A stretch of 64,000 nt of DNA from a virus. Its lineage: Duplodnaviria > Caudoviricetes. Location of the stretch: IMG/VR virus record IMGVR_UViG_3300033076_001039, positions 1 to 64,000 of that record. One strand, given 5' to 3'. Below the pieces are notes generated by a model, which was not told where the DNA came from, made no database searches, and worked only from the letters and a program-made list of their open reading frames with translations. This document shows, one piece after another, positions 1 through 62,416 of this stretch. Position numbers and translations under genes: made by a program. The first letter of the stretch is position 1; the number at the start of each line of letters is the position of its first letter.

Positions 1-3000
1 CCGCTAGTTCCTGATGAACCACTTGAACCTGAAGTACCATTCGTACCACTAGTTCCTGATGAACCACTTGAACCTGATGAACCACTTGAACCAGATGTCC
101 CTGAAGAACCTGAAGAACCTGAAGTGCCATTCGTTCCGCTAGTTCCTGATGAACCACTTGAACCTGAAGTACCATTCGTACCACTAGTACCTGAAGAACC
201 CGATGTACCTGATGAGCCAGATGTACCATCAGTACCGCTAGTTCCTGATGAACCACTTGAACCTGATGTTCCGCTAGAACCTGAAGTACCATTAGTCCCA
301 CTAGTTCCCGATGAACCACTTGAACCTGAAATACCACTAGTACCACTAGTACCTGATGAACCTGAAGTTCCGCTAGTTCCTGAAGAACCTGATGTTCCCG
401 ATGAACCACTTGAACCTGAAGAACCTGAAGAGCCATTAGTCCCGCTAGTTCCCGAAGAACCTGATGTACCATCTACACCTGATGTTCCTGATGAACCGCT
501 TGAACCTGAATTACCGCTAGTTCCTGATGAACCTGAAGTTCCTGATGAACCTGAAGTTCCGTTTCCGCCACTAGTACCTGAGGTTCCACTTGAACCAGAT
601 GTACCACTACTACCATTAACACCACTAATTCCTGAAGTACCACTAGTACCTGAACTACCTGATGTACCATCACTACCACTAGTTCCTGATGAACCTGATG
701 TACCATCTGAACCACTAGTACCTGAACTACCTGATGTACCATCACTACCGCTAGTTCCTGATGAACCTGATGTCCCGTCTGAACCACTAGTACCTGAACT
801 ACCCGATGTACCATCACTACCGCTAGTACCTGATGAACCTGACGTTCCTGATGAACCTGATGTTCCTGAACTACCTGATGTACCATCACTACCGCTAGTA
901 CCTGAACTACCTGATGTACCATCACTACCACTAGTACCTGAACTACCTGATGTACCATCACTACCGCTAGTACCTGATGAACCTGACGTTCCTGATGAAC
1001 CTGATGTTCCTGAACTACCTGATGTACCATCACTACCGCTAGTACCTGAACTACCTGATGTACCATCACTACCACTAGTACCTGAACTACCTGATGTACC
1101 ATCACTACCGCTAGTACCTGATGAACCTGACGTTCCTGATGAACCTGATGTTCCTGAACTACCTGATGTACCATCACTACCACTTGTTCCTGAAGACCCA
1201 CTAGTTCCTGAAGACCCACTTGTCCCTGAAGACCCGCTAGTTCCTGAAGACCCACTAGTCCCTGAAGACCCGCTACTTCCTGAGGCGGATTGTAATGTAG
1301 TTACGATGTAAGAATAGTGTGTAGTACCTTCAGTATAAAATGTAACCGTTTTATTACCTGTTTGGTTATTGTTCACATAAATATTAACAATAATTCTATC
1401 AGATGGGTCTAAAATTGCTGTAGTTGCAACACCATTACTTTTTGTTTCTACGGGAGTTGTATTATTTGTTTGCCACCCAATTTGTACAGGGTCACCACTA
1501 AATAATACAGTTGTTGTTCCACCTGTAGTATATTTTGATACTGTAAAGTAATAAGTAATATCATCATTTACAGCGTTTTTAGTGAAATAAGAATATGCGT
1601 GCCATATACCATTTGGAATAACCAAAACATTTGGATAACCAGGGTCGGTAATCCAACCTGAATCAACCAAAACATTTTGTTGGTTAGACGTTAAATTAAC
1701 AGTTATTCCTGTTTGAGGTGCCGTTGTTGTATATAAACCTAATTCTCTGTATGGTGATGGTGATTGAGCAACAGATGAGTTGAAAAATAAATTTTGTCCT
1801 CCTGAAATACCATTAATACCTGAAGTTCCTGATGAACCCGAACTACCGCTAGTTCCAGAGGAACCTGATGAGCCATCAACACCACTAGTTCCCGATGAAC
1901 CACTACTACCTGAAGTTCCACTAGACCCTGAAGTAGAAGTATACGCAACCGCTGCAACACCAATATTTTTAATATTAACAATAATTGAAGGTGCTGCAGG
2001 TGCAACAAATGGTGATGTTGTTGCAGATAATGCCGTAATTTGAGCATATTGTGTTGTTGCCGCCATTACTAATTCAACAGTATCTCCTTGATTTAAAGAT
2101 AAAATAATACTTACAAATGGTAATTGTTTTGTTGAATTAGCAACTAAATCAATATACGAATCTGTTCTCGGTACATCAACACCATTAACACGAACCCAAA
2201 AACTCATTTCAGAATTTGTTCCTTGTGTTTTTTCAACTTGAGGGGAATATGCAAATTCGTAGATTCCTGAATATTGAATGGAAATACTATTACCGCTTAG
2301 TAAGGTAATTCCATTTTCTATTTCAGTATTACTATAGGTTATAACTGTTGGAGTATTTGCACCTGAGACTACTTGAGTAATATCACTACTATAAGACGCA
2401 TAATAGTTCATTACTCCAGCTCCGCTAGTTCCTGAAGAACCTGAGGTTCCACTTGAACCTGAGCTTCCGCTTGAACCTGATGACCCTGATGTACCATCCA
2501 CACCACTAGTTCCTGAAGAACCTGATGAACCTGAAGTTCCACTTGAACCTGATGTACCATCTACACCACTAGTTCCTGAAGAACCTGAAGAACCTGAAGT
2601 ACCACTAGTCCCTGAAGAACCTGATGTACCATCTACACCACTAGTTCCTGAAGAACCTGAAGTACCACTTGAACCTGATGAACCTGAGGTACCGCTCGAA
2701 CCTGATGTACCATCAACACCACTAGTTCCTGAAGAACCTGATGTACCATTAGTACCACTAGTTCCTGAAGAACCTGATGTACCATCTACACCACTAGTCC
2801 CTGAAGAACCTGAAGTGCCACTTGAACCTGATGTTCCGTCCGTACCACTAGTACCTGAAGAACCCGATGTACCTGATGAACCGCTCGTACCTGATGTACC
2901 ACTTGAACCTGATGAACCGTTTGACCCATCAATCCCACTAACACCTGATGTTCCACTTGTCCCTGAAGAACCACTAGTCCCATTTGTCCCACTTGTTCCC

Positions 3001-3986
3001 GAAGAACCACTAGTTCCATTTGTTCCACTTGTTCCTGAAGAACCACTTGAACCATCAATCCCACTAACGCCTGAAGTTCCACTAGTTCCTGATGAACCAC
3101 TTGAACCTGAAGTGGTACCTGTAAATGTAATAACAACATTTCCACCACCATTATCAGTAACAGAGGCATTTGAAAATGTCATCCCTGTAACATTTGTTGC
3201 GGTTACACCTGAAGTGGCATCATATATTGTAAGAGGGCTTCCTCCTCCACCTGAAGTAAATCCTGTCACTTGAATATCTTGACCAAGTGAATTAGTTAAC
3301 GTTAAAGTTTGAGTACCTGAATTATATGTACCTCCCGTGATTGGTACTGTCAAACCTGTAATAGTAATAGTACCACCAGTATTATTATATAAAACTAAAT
3401 CTGAAGTACCTGAATAAAAGGTACCTCCTGTAATTTGAACATCAGTTCCATAGAATATCCTCCAACGTGCATCATTATGAGTAACCCCATCAACACCCTC
3501 AACAGTTGAGCCTGTCCAAGCGTTTATGAAGTTTTTACCGGCTTGGGAACGACTATTTACTACTGTCGCATAATCGGTAACTGTTTTTGCCGAATTTCCT
3601 GTAAGTCCCGATAATGCATCCCATAAAGTCTCATAATTAGGTATTGTGTATTGGTATACCGTATCCGTTTCTTGAACATATACCTGCATACCAAGTCTTC
3701 TCCTACCTGATGAAATATTATCAGAATTTAAACTTATACTGTCAGGTGAAAAAGCAGTTCCTGTTCCTTTTGTAAAATTTATTGGAATCGTGTTTGCAGA
3801 TAGTTGTATATTTGAAGGGTATGTTGAAGCAGTTAATACAAGTTCAAGGTCACTTAGATAATAAACTTCCATATAACCTCCCACAGTTAATACGGAAAAA
3901 TTAGTACCAAATGTTGAAGTCCTTAAAACACTTTGAGTTCCACCTAATTGTGCTGACGATAAAGGGTTTTTATATTCTAATGCCAT
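1..3986 (-). CDS. Giant Gly-X-Y (GTS/GSS) collagen-like fibre protein with internal C1q/BclA-like and beta-sandwich domains; 3'-partial, runs off left edge (>1320 aa)
   Basis: Manual translation from ATG 3986: MALEYKNPLSSAQLGG...RRLGMQVYVQETDTVYQ. The same frame reads GTSGSSG repeats down to base 1, and the globular inserts I translated have no stop. Insert ~2415-1945 reads YYASYSSDITQ...GIYEFAYSPQV...SLNQGDTVEL...APSIIVNI (C1q/BclA-like); a second insert lies at ~1795-1290. Absent from the ORF track because its stop is outside the window. Confidence 0.88.
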   Translation of the reverse strand, partial: MALEYKNPLSSAQLGGTQSVLRTSTFGTNFSVLTVGGYMEVYYLSDLELVLTASTYPSNIQLSANTIPINFTKGTGTAFSPDSISLNSDNISSGRRRLGMQVYVQETDTVYQYTIPNYETLWDALSGLTGNSAKTVTDYATVVNSRSQAGKNFINAWTGSTVEGVDGVTHNDARWRIFYGTDVQITGGTFYSGTSDLVLYNNTGGTITITGLTVPITGGTYNSGTQTLTLTNSLGQDIQVTGFTSGGGGSPLTIYDATSGVTATNVTGMTFSNASVTDNGGGNVVITFTGTTSGSSGSSGTSGTSGVSGIDGSSGSSGTSGTNGTSGSSGTSGTNGTSGSSGTSGTSGVSGIDGSNGSSGSSGTSGTSGSSGTSGSSGTSGTDGTSGSSGTSGSSGTSGVDGTSGSSGTSGTNGTSGSSGTSGVDGTSGSSGTSGSSGSSGTSGSSGTSGVDGTSGSSGTSGTSGSSGSSGTSGVDGTSGSSGTSGSSGSSGTSGVDGTSGSSGSSGSSGSSGTSGSSGTSGAGVMNYYASYSSDITQVVSGANTPTVITYSNTEIENGITLLSGNSISIQYSGIYEFAYSPQVEKTQGTNSEMSFWVRVNGVDVPRTDSYIDLVANSTKQLPFVSIILSLNQGDTVELVMAATTQYAQITALSATTSPFVAPAAPSIIVNIKNIGVAAVAYTSTSGSSGTSGSSGSSGTSGVDGSSGSSGTSGSSGSSGTSGINGISGGQNLFFNSSVAQSPSPYRELGLYTTTAPQTGITVNLTSNQQNVLVDSGWITDPGYPNVLVIPNGIWHAYSYFTKNAVNDDITYYFTVSKYTTGGTTTVLFSGDPVQIGWQTNNTTPVETKSNGVATTAILDPSDRIIVNIYVNNNQTGNKTVTFYTEGTTHYSYIVTTLQSASGSSGSSGTSGSSGTSGSSGTSGSSGTSGSSGTSGSDGTSGSSGTSGSSGTSGSSGTSGSDGTSGSSGTSGSDGTSGSSGTSGSDGTSGSSGTSGSSGTSGSSGTSGSDGTSGSSGTSGSDGTSGSSGTSGSDGTSGSSGTSGSSGTSGSSGTSGSDGTSGSSGTSGSDGTSGSSGTSGSDGTSGSSGTSGSDGTSGSSGTSGSDGTSGSSGTSGTSGISGVNGSSGTSGSSGTSGTSGGNGTSGSSGTSGSSGTSGNSGSSGSSGTSGVDGTSGSSGTSGTNGSSGSSGSSGSSGTSGSSGTSGTSGSSGTSGTSGISGSSGSSGTSGTNGTSGSSGTSGSSGSSGTSGTDGTSGSSGTSGSSGTSGTNGTSGSSGSSGTSGTNGTSGSSGSSGTSGSSGSSGSSGSSGTSGTNGTSGSSGSSGTS
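640..1285. repeat. Coding tandem repeats in the fibre gene: 9-nt Gly-X-Y unit, 36-nt unit, ~2.5 near-exact copies of a 144-nt unit, and 18-nt units at ~1185-1280
   Basis: gacgttcctgatgaacctg recurs at 841, 985 and 1129 (period 144); ctagtacctgaactacctgatgtaccatcactacc recurs many times; cctgaagaccc recurs every 18 nt at ~1189-1270. Confidence 0.9.
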
Positions 3987-4013
3987 GTTCTATATTGTTA
4001 TATTTAAGTATTT

Positions 4014-5273: not shown

Positions 5274-5369
5274 TCGATGTTTTTATTTAATAAATACCAC
5301 AACAATACTATTTCAGTGAGTCAGATTAAAAATATTGGGAACTTTAATTTTAGTTGTATTATTGACTTT

Positions 5370-52779: not shown

Positions 52780-53819
52780 ACTAGTTTGTTTTCGAATAGT
52801 ATATTAGCAGGTAGAGTGATATTATCTTTTGTTACTTCAATCCTTAATACATCATTTGTGGTAATTTCAATTCTTTGTAAATCACTACCATAATAATCAC
52901 CATTAATGTAGACATCAAAAGTATCTACATTATCGGTTGATACTAAATTCATATTCGCAGTAAAATCAATAACATCTGTCAACATTGTATTTCCTGAAAC
53001 AAATAAAAACGGCATTTCAAAAGTGTCAGGATTTTCAGGGTTTTGGTCTCTTCTTCTTTTTCTTGATGACGTATCAACCTCAATAAGTTGTGTAACTCTT
53101 TGGATTGCAGGTTTAACTTCAAACTCTTCTTCATCAATTAAATAACCCAACATTGTAAAGTCATAACTCTGAACATAATACTTTCTCGCATCCATATTCA
53201 TTTGAGATTCGTCCGATACATTATTTAAAATAATTGGAACGTATTGTCCTTTAATAAATGTGTATGCCTGTCTCGAAGAAAAAGTTTGCATAACAATCTT
53301 ATTCAACTGATTTAATTCCCTCATTCTATTACAAATGATTTTTACTTGGTAATTAATATCAACTGGTACAGGTTGTGGAATTGTATAAATGTCCATACCC
53401 TGTTCGTTTCCGTTCCATGTTGGGACTGAGGCATAATAGAATTGTTTTCTATTTGGGATTGTGTATTGAAGTGATGGATTTGTACCATATTTAACTTCAG
53501 GTGTCCTAACTACCGTAATAAATGGTGGTGCAGGATTGTAATCTAAATCCACAAATTGCCAAGTTTCTAAATATTGTGTCCAGTTTTGTGATGTAATAAT
53601 TATATCCAACATTGGGACTACTTTGCCTGCAGTTACAACTTCAAGTTCTGTCTTAACAAAATCAAGCATTCCCCTATCCAAGTCGGCATGTAATACTGAC
53701 TTTGGCAAATAAGTCCCGTCTTCCTTAATATATTCTAAAAGTTGTTCCCTTCTTTCAGATAATACTTTTTTTGGAACTAAAGGTAATGTTGGTTTTACAA
53801 CTGTTTTAGGTAGTGGCAT
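52776..53819 (-). CDS. Tail completion / sheath-terminator protein (T4 gp15-like)
   Basis: PVPVDINYQVKI...MRELNQL...YDFTMLGYL; sits between neck and sheath genes. Confidence 0.6.
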   Translation of the reverse strand: MPLPKTVVKPTLPLVPKKVLSERREQLLEYIKEDGTYLPKSVLHADLDRGMLDFVKTELEVVTAGKVVPMLDIIITSQNWTQYLETWQFVDLDYNPAPPFITVVRTPEVKYGTNPSLQYTIPNRKQFYYASVPTWNGNEQGMDIYTIPQPVPVDINYQVKIICNRMRELNQLNKIVMQTFSSRQAYTFIKGQYVPIILNNVSDESQMNMDARKYYVQSYDFTMLGYLIDEEEFEVKPAIQRVTQLIEVDTSSRKRRRDQNPENPDTFEMPFLFVSGNTMLTDVIDFTANMNLVSTDNVDTFDVYINGDYYGSDLQRIEITTNDVLRIEVTKDNITLPANILFENKLV

Positions 53820-54232
53820 TAGTCTTTTACTACAAATAGTTTATTTTGTGAATTAATCATATCAACTTCTGTTGCATTAAAAACAGGTTCTTCATTATTC
53901 TTATAAACAAATGAATCGTACTTATATGGGTTATAGGTTACAATTTTGTCTGATGGTGGACTTGGGATGTCATCACAAGGATATTCACAATAATCCAATA
54001 ATTTTCCAATCACAAATGCATGTACGTTTTTTGCCTTTTCGGAACGAACTCTTTCTTTACCACCTTTTCTAACTCTAAACTCAACATCACCCAATTTAAC
54101 ATAATCGGCATGCATAATTACTTTACCGTCATAGGTAACCGAAAAAGTATGTTTATGTAAGTTGTAATATACCATTACCTTCTTACCTAAAAACAAATTA
54201 TCAAATTGTGACTCAGTTATTAATAATTTCAT
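53819..54232 (-). CDS. Hypothetical phage protein (YNLH...KNVHAF...YNPY) with MKLLITESQ leader
   Basis: 137-aa ORF TAATG-coupled on both sides. Confidence 0.7.
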   Translation of the reverse strand: MKLLITESQFDNLFLGKKVMVYYNLHKHTFSVTYDGKVIMHADYVKLGDVEFRVRKGGKERVRSEKAKNVHAFVIGKLLDYCEYPCDDIPSPPSDKIVTYNPYKYDSFVYKNNEEPVFNATEVDMINSQNKLFVVKD

Positions 54233-54812: not shown

Positions 54813-56567
54813 ATGAGTGATGTTAGTTTAGAGTCAAAAGCGATGTCTATTCTTGAGTCCTATGAGGGCGGCAACAACTATATCTTGGAATTAAAACGCA
54901 AATCACAAATCAATAAAAAGTTTTATCCGACAAGAAGTCAATCAGAATATATCATTAATTTTCACGACCAAAAACCAAAGGTAGCCAAAAAGTGGGTCAT
55001 TCTTGATGCATATTTTGCACAGAAATTGGCTGATGATAAATTATACACCGAAATACCACAAAAGGTTTGGGTAGAAAAATTATTAGCAGATAAAGAAAAG
55101 GCATATCATATTTGGGGTAGAATATTGGAAACCGAAGAATTACATGATTTTTGGTTACCGAAAGCATCAATTATAAAAGACAACTCTGTTAAAGATGTTG
55201 TAATTGATTATTCTAAATATTCTCATCGTCCACCACTTGAACATCAAAAAGAAGCAATTCAAAAATTGGTTGAGAACAAAAAGTTTATCTTGGCGGATGA
55301 CATGGGTCTCGGAAAAACTACTTCAACTATCATTGCAGCATTAGAGACGGGGGCAAAAAAAGTATTAATCATTTGTCCTGCAACTTTAAAGATTAACTGG
55401 AAACGAGAAATTGAAAATTATTCAAATAAAGAAGTGTTCATTGCTGAAGGTAAAAACTTTAGTACTGAAGAGGACTTTGTAATCATAAACTATGATATTA
55501 TAAAAAATTTCCATGACACTAAGAAAAAAGATGATTCTCAAATTCTTGCTGCCAATTTTGATTTGGTCATTGTCGATGAAGCACACTATATCAAAAATGC
55601 TACAGCTCAAAGGACAAAACTAATTAATGACATTGTTAAGAAAACCGAAAGACTTTGGTTATTAACGGGTACACCTATGACCTCAAGACCAATCGATTAC
55701 TTCAACTTGTTGAGTTTAATTGACTCTCCTGTAGCAAAGAATTGGATGGCCTATGCGATTCGTTATTGCGGTGGATACCAATTCAAAGTTGGAAACAGAA
55801 AAGTTTGGAATGTTATGGGTTCATCAAACTTGGAAGAGTTACGTGACCGAACATTAGGTTTAACATTAAGACGATTAAAAGAAAATGTACTTGACCTTCC
55901 TCCTAAGATAATTACCCCAGTATATTTAAGATTAAAGTCGAAAGAATATGAAAATGTTATGGGTGAGTACTACGATTGGTATGACAAGAACCCTGAAGAG
56001 TCAAAATCTTTAACAGTTCAATTCACGAAATTAACAAAGGTTAGACAAATCATCGCCGATGAAAAAATTAAACAAACTATTGAGCTCGCTGAAAACATTC
56101 TTGAACAAGACAAGAAAGTTATTATTTTCTGTAATTTCACTGATTCCTTAAATAAAATTGTAGAACACTTTGGGAAATCTGCGGTTAAACTTGATGGGTC
56201 AATGTCAAAACCTGAACGTCAACACGCCGTTGACCAATTTCAAGAGAACCCAAAAGTTAAAGTTTTCGTGGGTAACATTAAAGCTGCAGGTGTTGGTATT
56301 ACACTTACCGCAGCCGAAGCGGTTATCATGAATGATTTATCATTCCTACCATCAGACCATGCTCAAGCTGAAGACCGAGCATATCGTTACGGTCAAAAAA
56401 ATAATGTTTTGGTTTATTACCCAATATTCGAAAATACAATCGAAGGTATCATCTACGATATCTTAAACAATAAAAAACAAGTTATTGCCACGGTTATGGG
56501 GGATGACCAACATCCTGCAGATATGGCAGAAGAAATCCTACAAAGAATCAACGAACTGCGACATTAA
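54813..56567 (+). CDS. SNF2-family ATPase (SMARCAL1/HARP-like helicase)
   Basis: LADDMGLGKT, IICPATL..NW, DEAH, LTGTP, KVIIF, GVGITLTAA, QAEDRAYRYGQ. Confidence 0.92.
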   Translation: MSDVSLESKAMSILESYEGGNNYILELKRKSQINKKFYPTRSQSEYIINFHDQKPKVAKKWVILDAYFAQKLADDKLYTEIPQKVWVEKLLADKEKAYHIWGRILETEELHDFWLPKASIIKDNSVKDVVIDYSKYSHRPPLEHQKEAIQKLVENKKFILADDMGLGKTTSTIIAALETGAKKVLIICPATLKINWKREIENYSNKEVFIAEGKNFSTEEDFVIINYDIIKNFHDTKKKDDSQILAANFDLVIVDEAHYIKNATAQRTKLINDIVKKTERLWLLTGTPMTSRPIDYFNLLSLIDSPVAKNWMAYAIRYCGGYQFKVGNRKVWNVMGSSNLEELRDRTLGLTLRRLKENVLDLPPKIITPVYLRLKSKEYENVMGEYYDWYDKNPEESKSLTVQFTKLTKVRQIIADEKIKQTIELAENILEQDKKVIIFCNFTDSLNKIVEHFGKSAVKLDGSMSKPERQHAVDQFQENPKVKVFVGNIKAAGVGITLTAAEAVIMNDLSFLPSDHAQAEDRAYRYGQKNNVLVYYPIFENTIEGIIYDILNNKKQVIATVMGDDQHPADMAEEILQRINELRH

Positions 56568-56608
56568 CGAAGAATGGATTATTTATATATAACGGATAAT
56601 CCAATTAT

Positions 56609-58138
56609 ATGAAAAAGACAGAAGAGAAAATCCAACAACTAGAATTACAGATACTTGAAAATCACGTAAAGAAAGAAAAAGAGTTGTTGATTACAGAAAT
56701 GAAAAAAATCGGAATAGAGAAACTACCTTATTCCTACTCAGCCCTCAAACAGTTTATTGACCCCGAAACTATGAGTTTCCATTACAATAAACATTATAAA
56801 GGGTATGTAGACAAATTAAACGACGCACTTTCAAAGAAAAAATACGGGGATTTAGATTTAGAAAAAATCATCAAGACAATTAGTCGTTTTGATAAAACAA
56901 TCCGAAACAACGCAGGTGGGGCATTTAACCACGCTTTGTTTTGGAATATGTTGACACCCGACCCAAAGAAACTTACTGGTGACCTTTACAAAAAGATTAC
57001 AAAACAGTGGGGGACATTCACAAATTTCAAAAAAGAATTTGAAAAAGTTGCCAAAGAAAGATTTGGTTCAGGTTGGGTGTGGTTAGTATTAACCTCCAAA
57101 AACACTTTGAAGATTATGTCTACACCAAACCAAGACAATCCATTAATGAATGTGATTGAAGGCGGGGGATTTCCATTGTTGGGATTAGATTTGTGGGAAC
57201 ACGCATATTATTTGAAGTACCGAAACAAAAGAGACGAATACATTACAAACTTTTGGAAAGTTGTGAATTGGGATTTTGTTACTAAAATGTACGAAATGAA
57301 AATTGAAACCAAATTATTAGAATCCACAAAAATGAAACAAGTTTTAAGTGAAGGTAAATCTGAAATGTGTTCCAAATCAGAAAATGAATTTTATAGAATG
57401 TTATTTAATGTCAACCAAGAAATTAAATGGACATATATGAATGCAATCAATAAAATTATGAGGGAAGTTTTTAGTGATAATTTTATTGAGAAACCTGATA
57501 ACAACCAACTTTCGGGGGTTTACGACCTTGAGGGTCCTGGTAGGTCTGTTATAAACAAACTTAATACTAACTACACATCATTCTGTATTTTACTAAAAGA
57601 TGTTAACCAAGTTATCGCAACTATACCAAATAAAAAACCTATTGTCTTTATTGATAAAACTCCCGCAGAACAGAAAAAAGAAATAGAAAGATTTATCGGA
57701 GCGTTAAATCATTTTAAGTATAGAATCTTTGATAAAGATAGTTCTACATTACATAATCTACTAAGAACATTAACTGAAAAAGATAAAGCGGGTAGTAAAA
57801 GAGAAGAGATTACCGCAGCAATACTTAGAAGATTTTTTGGTAAATCTGCAAAGGTTGAGTTAGTTGGTGAATTAGGTAATAAAAAAGATGCTATCCAAGG
57901 AGTTGATTTAGAAATTACTAAGGACGGTCAACTACACACAGCACAAGTAAAACCATTCAGAGAAATGAAAATTGGTGATGATGGTATTACTTTAGAAGGT
58001 ACTGCAAGTGTTAAATTATATAAGACAGATTGGATGGTTTTTCAAAAAGGAAAGAATGTTTTAGTCTTTAATCAAAAACCAAAAATTGTTGGTGGTAATT
58101 TTGTTTTCCCACCTGAGTCACTTTTATATAACATATAA
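56609..58138 (+). CDS. sodA: Fe/Mn superoxide dismutase (Mn-type signature) fused to a C-terminal PD-(D/E)xK-like domain
   Basis: LPYSYSAL, HYNKH, NNAGGAFNHALFW, FGSGWVWL, NQDNP and DLWEHAYY, followed by ~275 extra aa containing E...GVDL...AQVK. Confidence 0.88.
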   Translation: MKKTEEKIQQLELQILENHVKKEKELLITEMKKIGIEKLPYSYSALKQFIDPETMSFHYNKHYKGYVDKLNDALSKKKYGDLDLEKIIKTISRFDKTIRNNAGGAFNHALFWNMLTPDPKKLTGDLYKKITKQWGTFTNFKKEFEKVAKERFGSGWVWLVLTSKNTLKIMSTPNQDNPLMNVIEGGGFPLLGLDLWEHAYYLKYRNKRDEYITNFWKVVNWDFVTKMYEMKIETKLLESTKMKQVLSEGKSEMCSKSENEFYRMLFNVNQEIKWTYMNAINKIMREVFSDNFIEKPDNNQLSGVYDLEGPGRSVINKLNTNYTSFCILLKDVNQVIATIPNKKPIVFIDKTPAEQKKEIERFIGALNHFKYRIFDKDSSTLHNLLRTLTEKDKAGSKREEITAAILRRFFGKSAKVELVGELGNKKDAIQGVDLEITKDGQLHTAQVKPFREMKIGDDGITLEGTASVKLYKTDWMVFQKGKNVLVFNQKPKIVGGNFVFPPESLLYNI

Positions 58139-58161: not shown

Positions 58162-59283
58162 ATGTCAGTTATACCAGAACCAGAAAGGTCAAAAATTTAT
58201 ACAAGAGTAAAACATCTCTTGGGTGCTCCATTACGTAGTGTTGAAGTCACTGACGAAATGATGGATTCATTAATGGAATTATCTATTCAGGATTATGAAC
58301 AATACATTCTGAATTGGTTGATTGATAGCCAATGGGTAAACTTGGTGAATCTTAACATGACGGAAAAATCAGTTGCACAAGCATTGATAACAAGAACTAT
58401 GGATTTCGAACAACAGTTCTCATACTCGTATTCCAAAATTGTTGGACTACAGGCAATGGGACCTTGGGTTTTGAAAAAAGATTATGTTATTCTTGAAAGA
58501 GATAAACAAAACTACGAAATACCTGCTGGTCGTGAGATAAATGAAGTATTATGGTTTAGTAATCAACCATGGACTGCATTTGGTTTAGGGGGTATTGGTG
58601 GATTTGGTGGTGTTGGTTTAGGTGCTAACGAAGCTGGATTTGCACAAATGGGATACCAAGGTTCTTATTTTATGATGTCAGGTTTTGACTATTTGATAAG
58701 AATGCAAGAAGCAAACATTCTAAATAGAATTCTTGGTGGTTCGTTAACTTATAGAATTACAGCACTACCTGATGGTAAAAAAGATTTACAACTTTATAAC
58801 ACACCTGGCGGAAATTTCAATTGGAGTAACTATAGTGAATATGTTGGTAAAGCCGTTTGGTATTGGTATTATGATGTAACACCTGACAGTAGAGCGGATT
58901 GTTTGAAAAATAATCCTGATGTAATCAAAATGCCTAATGACGTTCCATTAGAAGAACTTACTTGGAGTGACCTTAACGTACCTGCACAACAGTGGGTTAG
59001 AAGGTGGTTTACCGCTTATGTAAAAGAAACTTTAGGTAGAGTTAGAGGAAAATATAGTGGTAATTTAAAAACTCCTGACTCTGAACTACAAATGGACTAC
59101 ACAAGTTTATTGACTGAAGGTAAGGATGAAAAAACAAAACTAATTGAGGAACTTACAGGTGCTGAAGGTTGGTTAACAAGATTAAGACCTGAAAAAGTAA
59201 TGGAAAAAGAGGCCTTAATTGCAGAAAACTTAAATAAACAAATGAAGTTTAGGGCGATGCCTCGTCAAATATATGTAATTTAA
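58162..59283 (+). CDS. Neck protein (T4 gp13-like)
   Basis: LLGAPLRSVEVTDEMM...; C-terminal WVRRWFTAYVKETLGRVRGKYSG. Confidence 0.8.
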   Translation: MSVIPEPERSKIYTRVKHLLGAPLRSVEVTDEMMDSLMELSIQDYEQYILNWLIDSQWVNLVNLNMTEKSVAQALITRTMDFEQQFSYSYSKIVGLQAMGPWVLKKDYVILERDKQNYEIPAGREINEVLWFSNQPWTAFGLGGIGGFGGVGLGANEAGFAQMGYQGSYFMMSGFDYLIRMQEANILNRILGGSLTYRITALPDGKKDLQLYNTPGGNFNWSNYSEYVGKAVWYWYYDVTPDSRADCLKNNPDVIKMPNDVPLEELTWSDLNVPAQQWVRRWFTAYVKETLGRVRGKYSGNLKTPDSELQMDYTSLLTEGKDEKTKLIEELTGAEGWLTRLRPEKVMEKEALIAENLNKQMKFRAMPRQIYVI

Positions 59284-62328: not shown

Positions 62329-62416
62329 AATAATATTTCGTTGGTTTATTAGCTCTCACACCGTCGTGAGGTTTACCTTCGTAAATAAATATAAATGAAA
62401 AAACGGATTAATCAAA

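Follow-up and report, generated by a model that had tools for sequence, protein, structure and literature searches.

A phage gene that fuses a Mn-type superoxide dismutase to a module with a predicted PD-(D/E)xK nuclease fold

Background

Superoxide dismutases (SODs) of the Fe/Mn family (PF00081 + PF02777) are ordinarily stand-alone enzymes of ~200 amino acids (aa), and stand-alone members exist in cultured jumbo phages (the PA5oct group and Vibrio phage 2.275.O), so the occurrence of an Fe/Mn SOD in a phage is in itself no novelty. The chlorovirus PBCV-1 encodes a SOD of the Cu/Zn family that is a late gene product and is packaged in the virion (PMC7019647). Among nucleases of the PD-(D/E)xK kind, gp4 of T4 is a head-completion enzyme typical of T4-like jumbo phages (PMC1189080; PMC7824862, citing Benler et al. 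2020). Here we describe a gene, SOD-X, that combines proteins of these two known kinds, Fe/Mn SOD and (by structure prediction) PD-(D/E)xK nuclease, in a combination that is apparently undescribed. It lies at 56609..58138 of a 64,000-nucleotide (nt) stretch, hereafter the window, which makes up the initial 64 kb of an IMG/VR viral record of 128,109 bp (IMGVR_UViG_3300033076_001039). CheckV puts the completeness of this record at 43%, which implies a phage genome of ~300 kb; the source is an uncultured freshwater T4-like jumbo myovirus of about that size.

The fusion is already present in databases, without annotation, and apparently undescribed in the searchable literature. UniProt A0A6J5L953 and JGI/NCBI entries of 501-515 aa named 'Fe-Mn family superoxide dismutase' have the same architecture as SOD-X; they are annotated as SOD only, their C-terminal module carrying no annotation. 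Searches of the literature on Fe/Mn SODs of phages and on fusions of a SOD with a nuclease returned nothing relevant, and no paper on the C-terminal module.

Results and Discussion

SOD-X is a single intact gene

SOD-X is a single open reading frame (ORF) of 509 codons plus stop on the + strand (56609..58138), its first Met sitting 3 codons past an in-frame stop. Its product begins with a short N-terminal helix, continues with a complete Fe/Mn SOD of the Mn type and a linker predicted to be flexible, and ends in a phage-specific module that we call X. The SOD (aa 36-226; 56714..57286, +) is matched by Sod_Fe_N (PF00081, aa 36-115, E 4e-22, 78.8 bits against a cut-off of 27) and Sod_Fe_C (PF02777, aa 123-226, E 5e-40, 136.2 bits against a cut-off of 20.9). 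All four metal ligands (H58, H108, D194, H198) are present and align with those of solved Mn-SODs, of which the closest are the bacterial enzymes 6gsc/6gsb/5a9g (full-length match, E 1e-58 over aa 36-231), and the motifs HYxKH, NNAGGxxNHxLFW and DxWEHAYYL are kept in that alignment. The gateway His (H62) and Tyr, the G103-G104 pair and the N174-Q175-D176 triplet with its Mn-type Gln (Q175) are likewise in place, and the NCBIfam Mn model scores above the Fe model, both remaining under the equivalog cut-offs for SodA and SodB. Because these ligands and motifs are kept, and because the ratio of non-synonymous to synonymous substitution rates (dN/dS) is only 0.045 in this segment, the SOD domain looks like a working enzyme of the Mn type. 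A first-pass annotation, made from the letters of the window alone, had placed an intact Mn-type SOD at ~56705-57300 on the strength of the ligands and the GG and NQD signatures, and that call stands; its accompanying remark that the phage SODs known to it are mostly Cu/Zn has to be corrected in view of the stand-alone Fe/Mn enzymes of PA5oct-like phages and Vibrio phage 2.275.O. What sets SOD-X apart from ordinary Fe/Mn SODs is an added helix of 30 aa at the N-terminus and an extension of 280 aa at the C-terminus.

The fusion recurs well beyond the window. In related IMG/VR loci gathered with a single-sequence query (n=63), SOD-X is a single open frame of 504-510 codons in every case (63/63), within the gene order p137, p174, SNF2 helicase, SOD-X, gp13-like gene, p111 and family-B DNA polymerase (polB). 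The C-terminal 275 aa, used as a query, retrieved 256 database relatives (from JGI, ENA, Logan and NCBI), most of them 509-511 aa long and carrying both SOD Pfam domains. Across 22 distinct 509-codon alleles, dN/dS is 0.045 for the SOD, 0.10 for the helical part of X and 0.13 for its nuclease part, values by which all segments of the gene are under purifying selection. The fusion is not a sequencing error, because the same single frame is found in all 63 loci and in most of the 256 database proteins, and because purifying selection extends throughout.

The contrary proposition, that the fusion arose from an assembly or sequencing error or that SOD-X is a decaying gene with one inactive half, could draw on database entries of ~280-340 aa (P0003, P0126, P0133) that resemble stand-alone C-terminal genes, the N-termini of the ~280-aa ones matching the segment that follows the SOD. 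These entries are gene calls truncated at contig edges: in each the frame is open upstream and encodes the C-terminus of the SOD. The 63 loci moreover come from many samples, and SOD ligands and predicted catalytic residues are all kept, so we put the probability of artefact or decay next to nil and regard it as refuted as far as sequence data reach. The first-pass annotation had proposed this one-frame fusion while allowing that it might be a sequencing error, and had suggested searching for the same architecture; its recurrence in all 63 loci and in several databases settles both points in favour of the fusion.

Module X is predicted to combine a novel helical domain with an Hjc-like nuclease fold

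Module X (aa 255-509, 255 aa) was modelled with AlphaFold2 on a 55-homolog alignment (predicted local distance difference test, pLDDT, 93.4; predicted template-modelling score, pTM, 0.88), and in this model it is a novel helical domain followed by an Hjc-like domain with the PD-(D/E)xK nuclease fold. The helical domain (aa 255-391; 57371..57781, +) bears a near-invariant GRSxLNxLNTN motif (S313, N316) and folds confidently when modelled alone (pLDDT 95.8); structural searches with it found no recognisable relative, the best match reaching a VIA Z of 4.4. The nuclease-fold domain (aa 392-509; 57782..58135, +) was recognised from structural matches of the model. Its best match is Hjc (2wcw; Z 7.9-8.4 over about 100 of 125 residues, root-mean-square deviation 3.3-3.5), and the top Foldseek match is I-Ssp6803I (2ost; E 0.012, probability 0.99; VIA Z 7.3-7.4). 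The SPARDA DREN domain, NhoI, Hje and HhaI match at Z 6.4-7.4, followed by RecU and tRNA-splicing endonucleases, and almost all of the top structural rows from the two aligners are PD-(D/E)xK proteins. On this modelled evidence, aa 392-509 has the restriction-endonuclease-like core fold.

Conservation points to the same residues as the model. In an alignment of 55 homologs reaching down to about 20% identity, D427, D433, Q446 and K448 are invariant, and G395, E399, G431, S313, N316 and Y471 are at least 90% conserved. The predicted catalytic residues, spread over 57803..57952 (+), are E399 (57803-57805), D427 (57887-57889), D433 (57905-57907), Q446 (57944-57946) and K448 (57950-57952). The model puts E399 on its first, long helix, D433 where strand 2 begins and Q446-x-K448 within strand 3, an arrangement that is canonical, and we infer that X would be an active metal-dependent DNA endonuclease.

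The first-pass annotation had read a helix-Glu, Asp, Q-x-K layout in the ~275 aa that follow the SOD and had assigned them to Mrr-like PD-(D/E)xK nucleases. The strings that it quoted are present (GSKREE at aa 395-400, KKDAIQGVD at 425-433, AQVKP at 445-449), the residues it picked out are the conserved ones, and the fold that it proposed is borne out by the model for the last ~118 aa, aa 255-391 forming a separate helical domain. The nearest structures are Hjc and I-Ssp6803I and not specifically Mrr; the Mrr-type domain of LlaBIII matches X at only Z 3.8, and no Mrr Pfam match was found.

The likeness to Hjc (PF01870; 2wcw, 1gef, 1hh1; phage Hjc-type 7bgs) comprises the best fold match and the helix-Glu / Asp / xK layout, and it extends to spacing, 13 residues separating D433 from Q446 as they do the Asp from the Glu in Hjc. 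In X, by contrast, Gln replaces Glu within the (D/E)xK triplet, D427 is an additional invariant Asp, and a 137-aa helical domain precedes the fold. T4 gp4 invites comparison on other grounds, belonging to the same fold superfamily and to phages with T4-type head assembly, while X adjoins a head-completion gene of gp13 type. It differs in size (150 aa against about 275 aa) and in branch, gp4 being TnsA/T7 endo I-like where X is Hjc-like: T4 gp4 matches PF08722 (TnsA-like) at E 2e-21, and X does not. PF01870 was not found in the record that holds the window (control genomes positive), and PF08722 was found neither there nor in five related records (82-182 kb; T4 control positive), absences that are only suggestive because the records are incomplete.

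At the level of sequence X is a family of its own. Neither the single sequence nor a 55-sequence profile matched Pfam, PHROG, NCBIfam or PDB sequences, apart from faint sub-threshold matches to DUF6602, RE_EcoO109I, DUF4942 and NOV_C. An exhaustive search of 1.8 billion representatives recovered at least 149 X clusters, of which 86 score E<=1e-10; the nearest protein-atlas neighbours are all viral. X is a sizeable family, phage-only and unannotated, whose helical domain is modelled with confidence and has no relative that could be recognised. In marine phages the module forms the C-terminus of proteins of 1,109-1,113 aa (L066:6001-9330, P0261; BFVD A0A8D9CCA0), their first ~815 aa matching neither Pfam nor PHROG.

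X is constant in its slot and the SOD is optional

X is the constant occupant of a slot between a SNF2 helicase gene and a gp13-type neck gene, and the SOD is optional. The upstream gene (54813..56567, +) encodes a 584-aa SNF2-family helicase of superfamily 2 (Pfam SNF2-rel_dom E 3e-28, Helicase_C E 2e-19; phrog_62 E 1e-114), and a SNF2 helicase precedes SOD-X or X in all related loci. The downstream gene (58162..59283, +; 373 aa) is a T4 gp13-type neck or adaptor gene (phrog_211, head-tail adaptor, E 8e-10), whose homologs carry the precomputed Pfam label Phage_T4_gp13 and whose position is syntenic. Since gene calls such as the short entries described above are truncated at contig edges, many 'stand-alone' labels on the X tree are unreliable, and only states verified from DNA context were used.

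Three such states were found. The first is fused SOD-X, in the window and the 63 loci. In the second, SOD (248 aa) and X (266 aa) are separate genes that lie in different frames and overlap by 29 nt (L075:4283-5801), the sequence and junction being identical in contigs from three samples; the overlap may reflect translational coupling or the splitting of a once-fused gene. A 40-aa ORF, a TnpB/IS605-OrfB gene (400 aa) and an HNH gene (136 aa) stand between X and the gp13-like gene of these split loci (L075:5806-7693; also L076, L077). In the third state X is alone, 10-70 nt past the helicase stop codon (L002/P0122, L073/P0128, L074/P0136, P0125). The helicase ORF of one SOD-less locus (L002:3-3983) has at least 1,315 aa against 584 aa, its SNF2 part being C-terminal and preceded by ~740 aa.

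A quick maximum-likelihood tree of X, with supports from the approximate likelihood ratio test SH-aLRT, places the SOD-linked forms (except the fused P0161) together with the verified split and stand-alone states in one clade (support 98), beside two further X clades without SOD. Within that clade the states interleave: the fused clade that holds the window has stand-alone P0122 as its sister (support 100), and stand-alone P0136 groups with fused P0127 (support 98). Because of this interleaving we conclude that the SOD was gained or lost more than once while X stayed constant. The fusion of SOD with nuclease, on which the first-pass annotation built a bifunctional protein, is not obligatory, since relatives encode the two as separate genes or X alone; the fused, split and SOD-less states amount to a natural experiment on the benefit of a phage SOD and of its linkage to a DNA enzyme.

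X changes faster than its surroundings. At one related locus (L007) its identity to the window's protein is 83%, against 93-97% for the SOD, helicase, gp13 and polB proteins; at another (L056) it is 43%, where the SOD, helicase and polB reach 71-74% and the gp13-like gene 55%. Overall, protein-level change in X is about four times faster than in the SOD and faster than in all neighbours.

This pace of change, together with I-Ssp6803I and the type II restriction enzymes NhoI and HhaI among the best structural matches, could be expected of an offensive or selfish nuclease: one that degrades host DNA, resembles a restriction enzyme or counters defence, or else an I-Ssp6803I-type homing endonuclease, with the SOD as an unrelated passenger. 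The helical domain could then be a variable specificity domain, and mobile genes (TnpB, HNH) do adjoin X in the split-state loci. Yet homing endonucleases are sporadically distributed, whereas X occupies the same position in every related locus examined. Unlike the intron-borne I-Ssp6803I, it is a fixed syntenic gene, found in one slot in 63 loci and in the split and stand-alone variants. Its dN/dS (0.10-0.13) is that of purifying and not of diversifying selection, and neither a methyltransferase partner nor an intron or intein context was seen, in an analysis that did not extend to PADLOC. We consider an offensive or selfish role quite improbable.

A proposed late DNA-processing role for X

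The reading that we prefer is that X is a late DNA-processing endonuclease of the interface between replication, packaging and head completion, with the SOD as an optional accessory; we hold it at roughly even chances. Late in infection, phage DNA would probably be its substrate; X would trim or resolve branched molecules at that interface, as a functional analogue of T4 endonuclease VII or of the gp4 head-completion nuclease, possibly together with the adjacent SNF2 helicase. The SOD would be an accessory antioxidant, tethered to X or merely co-expressed with it, that clears superoxide from the sites of phage DNA handling, the habitat being oxic and sunlit, and its cassette could be lost without loss of X.

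A late, T4-like context for X is suggested by the gp13-type neighbour, by the tail sheath and tube genes, and by a gp21-type prohead protease gene in the same record (G000:110338-110757; PF03420, E 1e-23, above cut-off). The genes around SOD-X, which include polB, are the set of a T4-like contractile-tailed phage.

Ahead of SOD-X, a 7-bp inverted repeat (GGATTAT / ATAATCC; 56576..56602, +) surrounds the box TATTTAT(ATA) at 56580-56589, 20-29 nt before the start codon; this sequence is identical in L003 and L035, and the repeat itself could be a terminator of the helicase gene or an operator. Counted within 60 nt upstream of a start codon, sense-oriented TATTTAT precedes 13 of 36 genes, where 0.5 would be expected by position, and these account for 13 of the 29 occurrences of TATTTAT in the window. 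The boxes lie 11-63 nt ahead of their gene starts, at 5290, 11707, 20258, 22654, 44961, 46851, 48359, 52532 and 54763 on the - strand, at 56580 and 58151 on the + strand, and at 62385 and 62799 on the - strand. The genes concerned include those for sheath and tube, a tape-measure-like gene, large structural ORFs, the gp13-like gene and SOD-X, and also polB; no TATTTAT box was found before the SNF2 helicase. TATTTAT is a candidate phage promoter element, mostly of structural genes, and SOD-X has a promoter-like element of this structural-gene type to itself, which fits late expression.

Several observations weigh against a late DNA-processing role. The TATTTAT box does not prove late timing, because polB has one too, so that of the late expression proposed in the first-pass annotation what stands is a box of SOD-X's own, common to tail and neck genes. 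The model of X has strands after strand 3 where canonical members of the family have a helix, and Z values of 7-8.4 are only moderate. No sequence-profile link joins X to Hjc, and neither X nor the 55 homologs has a Pfam match. Orthology with T4 gp4 was tried and rejected, hhalign of the X alignment against T4 gp4 giving a probability of 0.3%. Distant X homologs (L066, L067, L081, P0215) share no neighbourhood theme. The sampled records cover at most about 61% of a genome, and a canonical gp4 or endonuclease VII could lie elsewhere. Finally, none of the results gives a mechanistic reason for tethering a SOD to a nuclease.

N-terminal extension, linker and (L/I)xE triplets

The N-terminal helix or extension covers aa 1-30 (56609..56698, +) and ends I28-T29-E30 before M31. 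An N-terminus of the type MKxxxxKIxxLExxI heads whichever gene is first after the helicase, and I15 is invariant in 8 of 8 N-termini across the fused, split-SOD and stand-alone X forms. Similarity between fused and stand-alone forms is weak (pairwise z-scores 1.2-4.1), and the 5' DNA of the stand-alone gene in L002 is about 58% identical to that of fused genes in an A-rich stretch, a value that is not decisive. As far as these comparisons go, the SOD appears, with weak to moderate confidence, to be nested behind a shared N-terminal peptide.

The inter-domain linker (aa 229-254; 57293..57370, +) is probably flexible, because model confidence is low there: the first 20 residues of the AlphaFold model have pLDDT values of 49-71. 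The triplets I28-T-E30, L236-L-E238 and L246-S-E248, all of the form (L/I)xE, flank the SOD. All of the 80 fused proteins have E30 and E238, and 79 of them have E248; the middle residue of the triplets is variable. SOD-X has 6 such triplets in 509 aa, and 4 of them lie within the 56 residues of N-extension and linker.

The T4 prohead protease gp21 cleaves after (L/I)xE. The leader of T4 IPI, in the T4 record, ends I-T-E ahead of the mature part, the same tripeptide as I28-T29-E30, and cleavage to IPI* is presumably after this ITE. SOD-X accordingly shows the features of a T4-type capsid-targeted protein, a leader with (L/I)xE at its end and a genome that encodes a gp21-type protease, features that are necessary and not sufficient. 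From these one can build a cleavable polyprotein in which the N-terminal 30 aa are a T4-like capsid-targeting sequence that carries SOD and X into the prohead, where the gp21-type protease would cut after I28-T-E30 and after L236-x-E238 and/or L246-x-E248. The head would then contain SOD and X as free proteins, to be ejected with the DNA, the SOD to blunt the host oxidative response and X to attack host DNA or process the DNA end. The SOD cassette would have slotted naturally between targeting signal and cargo, as in the engineered T4 capsid-targeting fusions that exist. The first-pass annotation had already suggested a cleavable polyprotein, and a shielding of injected DNA or an attack on host DNA, ideas to which the conserved (L/I)xE triplets and the T4-type prohead protease gene lend some support.

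Beyond the protease gene, the clustered and conserved triplets and the poorly modelled linker, such a polyprotein would explain why the N-terminal helix heads the first protein in the slot, as expected of an obligate N-terminal targeting signal, and it fits the stand-alone X of the split state, which opens with a 10-aa stretch ending I-H-E. Its weaknesses are that (L/I)xE is common in helices rich in Lys, Glu and Leu, 6 triplets being just what composition predicts for the whole protein; that the N-termini of fused and stand-alone forms are so little alike; that an active nuclease in a DNA-filled head would have to stay silent; and that the split-state X lacks the long N-terminal helix. The packaging of the PBCV-1 SOD is a precedent (PMC7019647), and that enzyme is virus-encoded and expressed late, but it is of the Cu/Zn family, comes from a virus of a eukaryotic host, is unfused, and has had its packaging demonstrated experimentally. 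All in all we regard the polyprotein as conceivable and rather doubtful. Were it true, SOD-X would be a natural case of cargo inserted after a capsid-targeting signal, and also the first SOD that a phage delivers along with its genome; should it be false, X is still a candidate non-orthologous replacement for a nuclease of head completion or branch resolution, in a widespread lineage of freshwater jumbo phages.

Other features of the window

Two further observations concern the rest of the window. The 137-aa protein encoded at 53819-54232 (-) matches Pfam Phage_L5_gp82 (E 2e-31), a mycobacteriophage family, here in the genome of a low-GC freshwater phage. Positions 1-4000 have a GC content of 39-43%, against about 33% elsewhere, and lie inside a minus-strand ORF of more than 1,328 aa that extends beyond the window edge.

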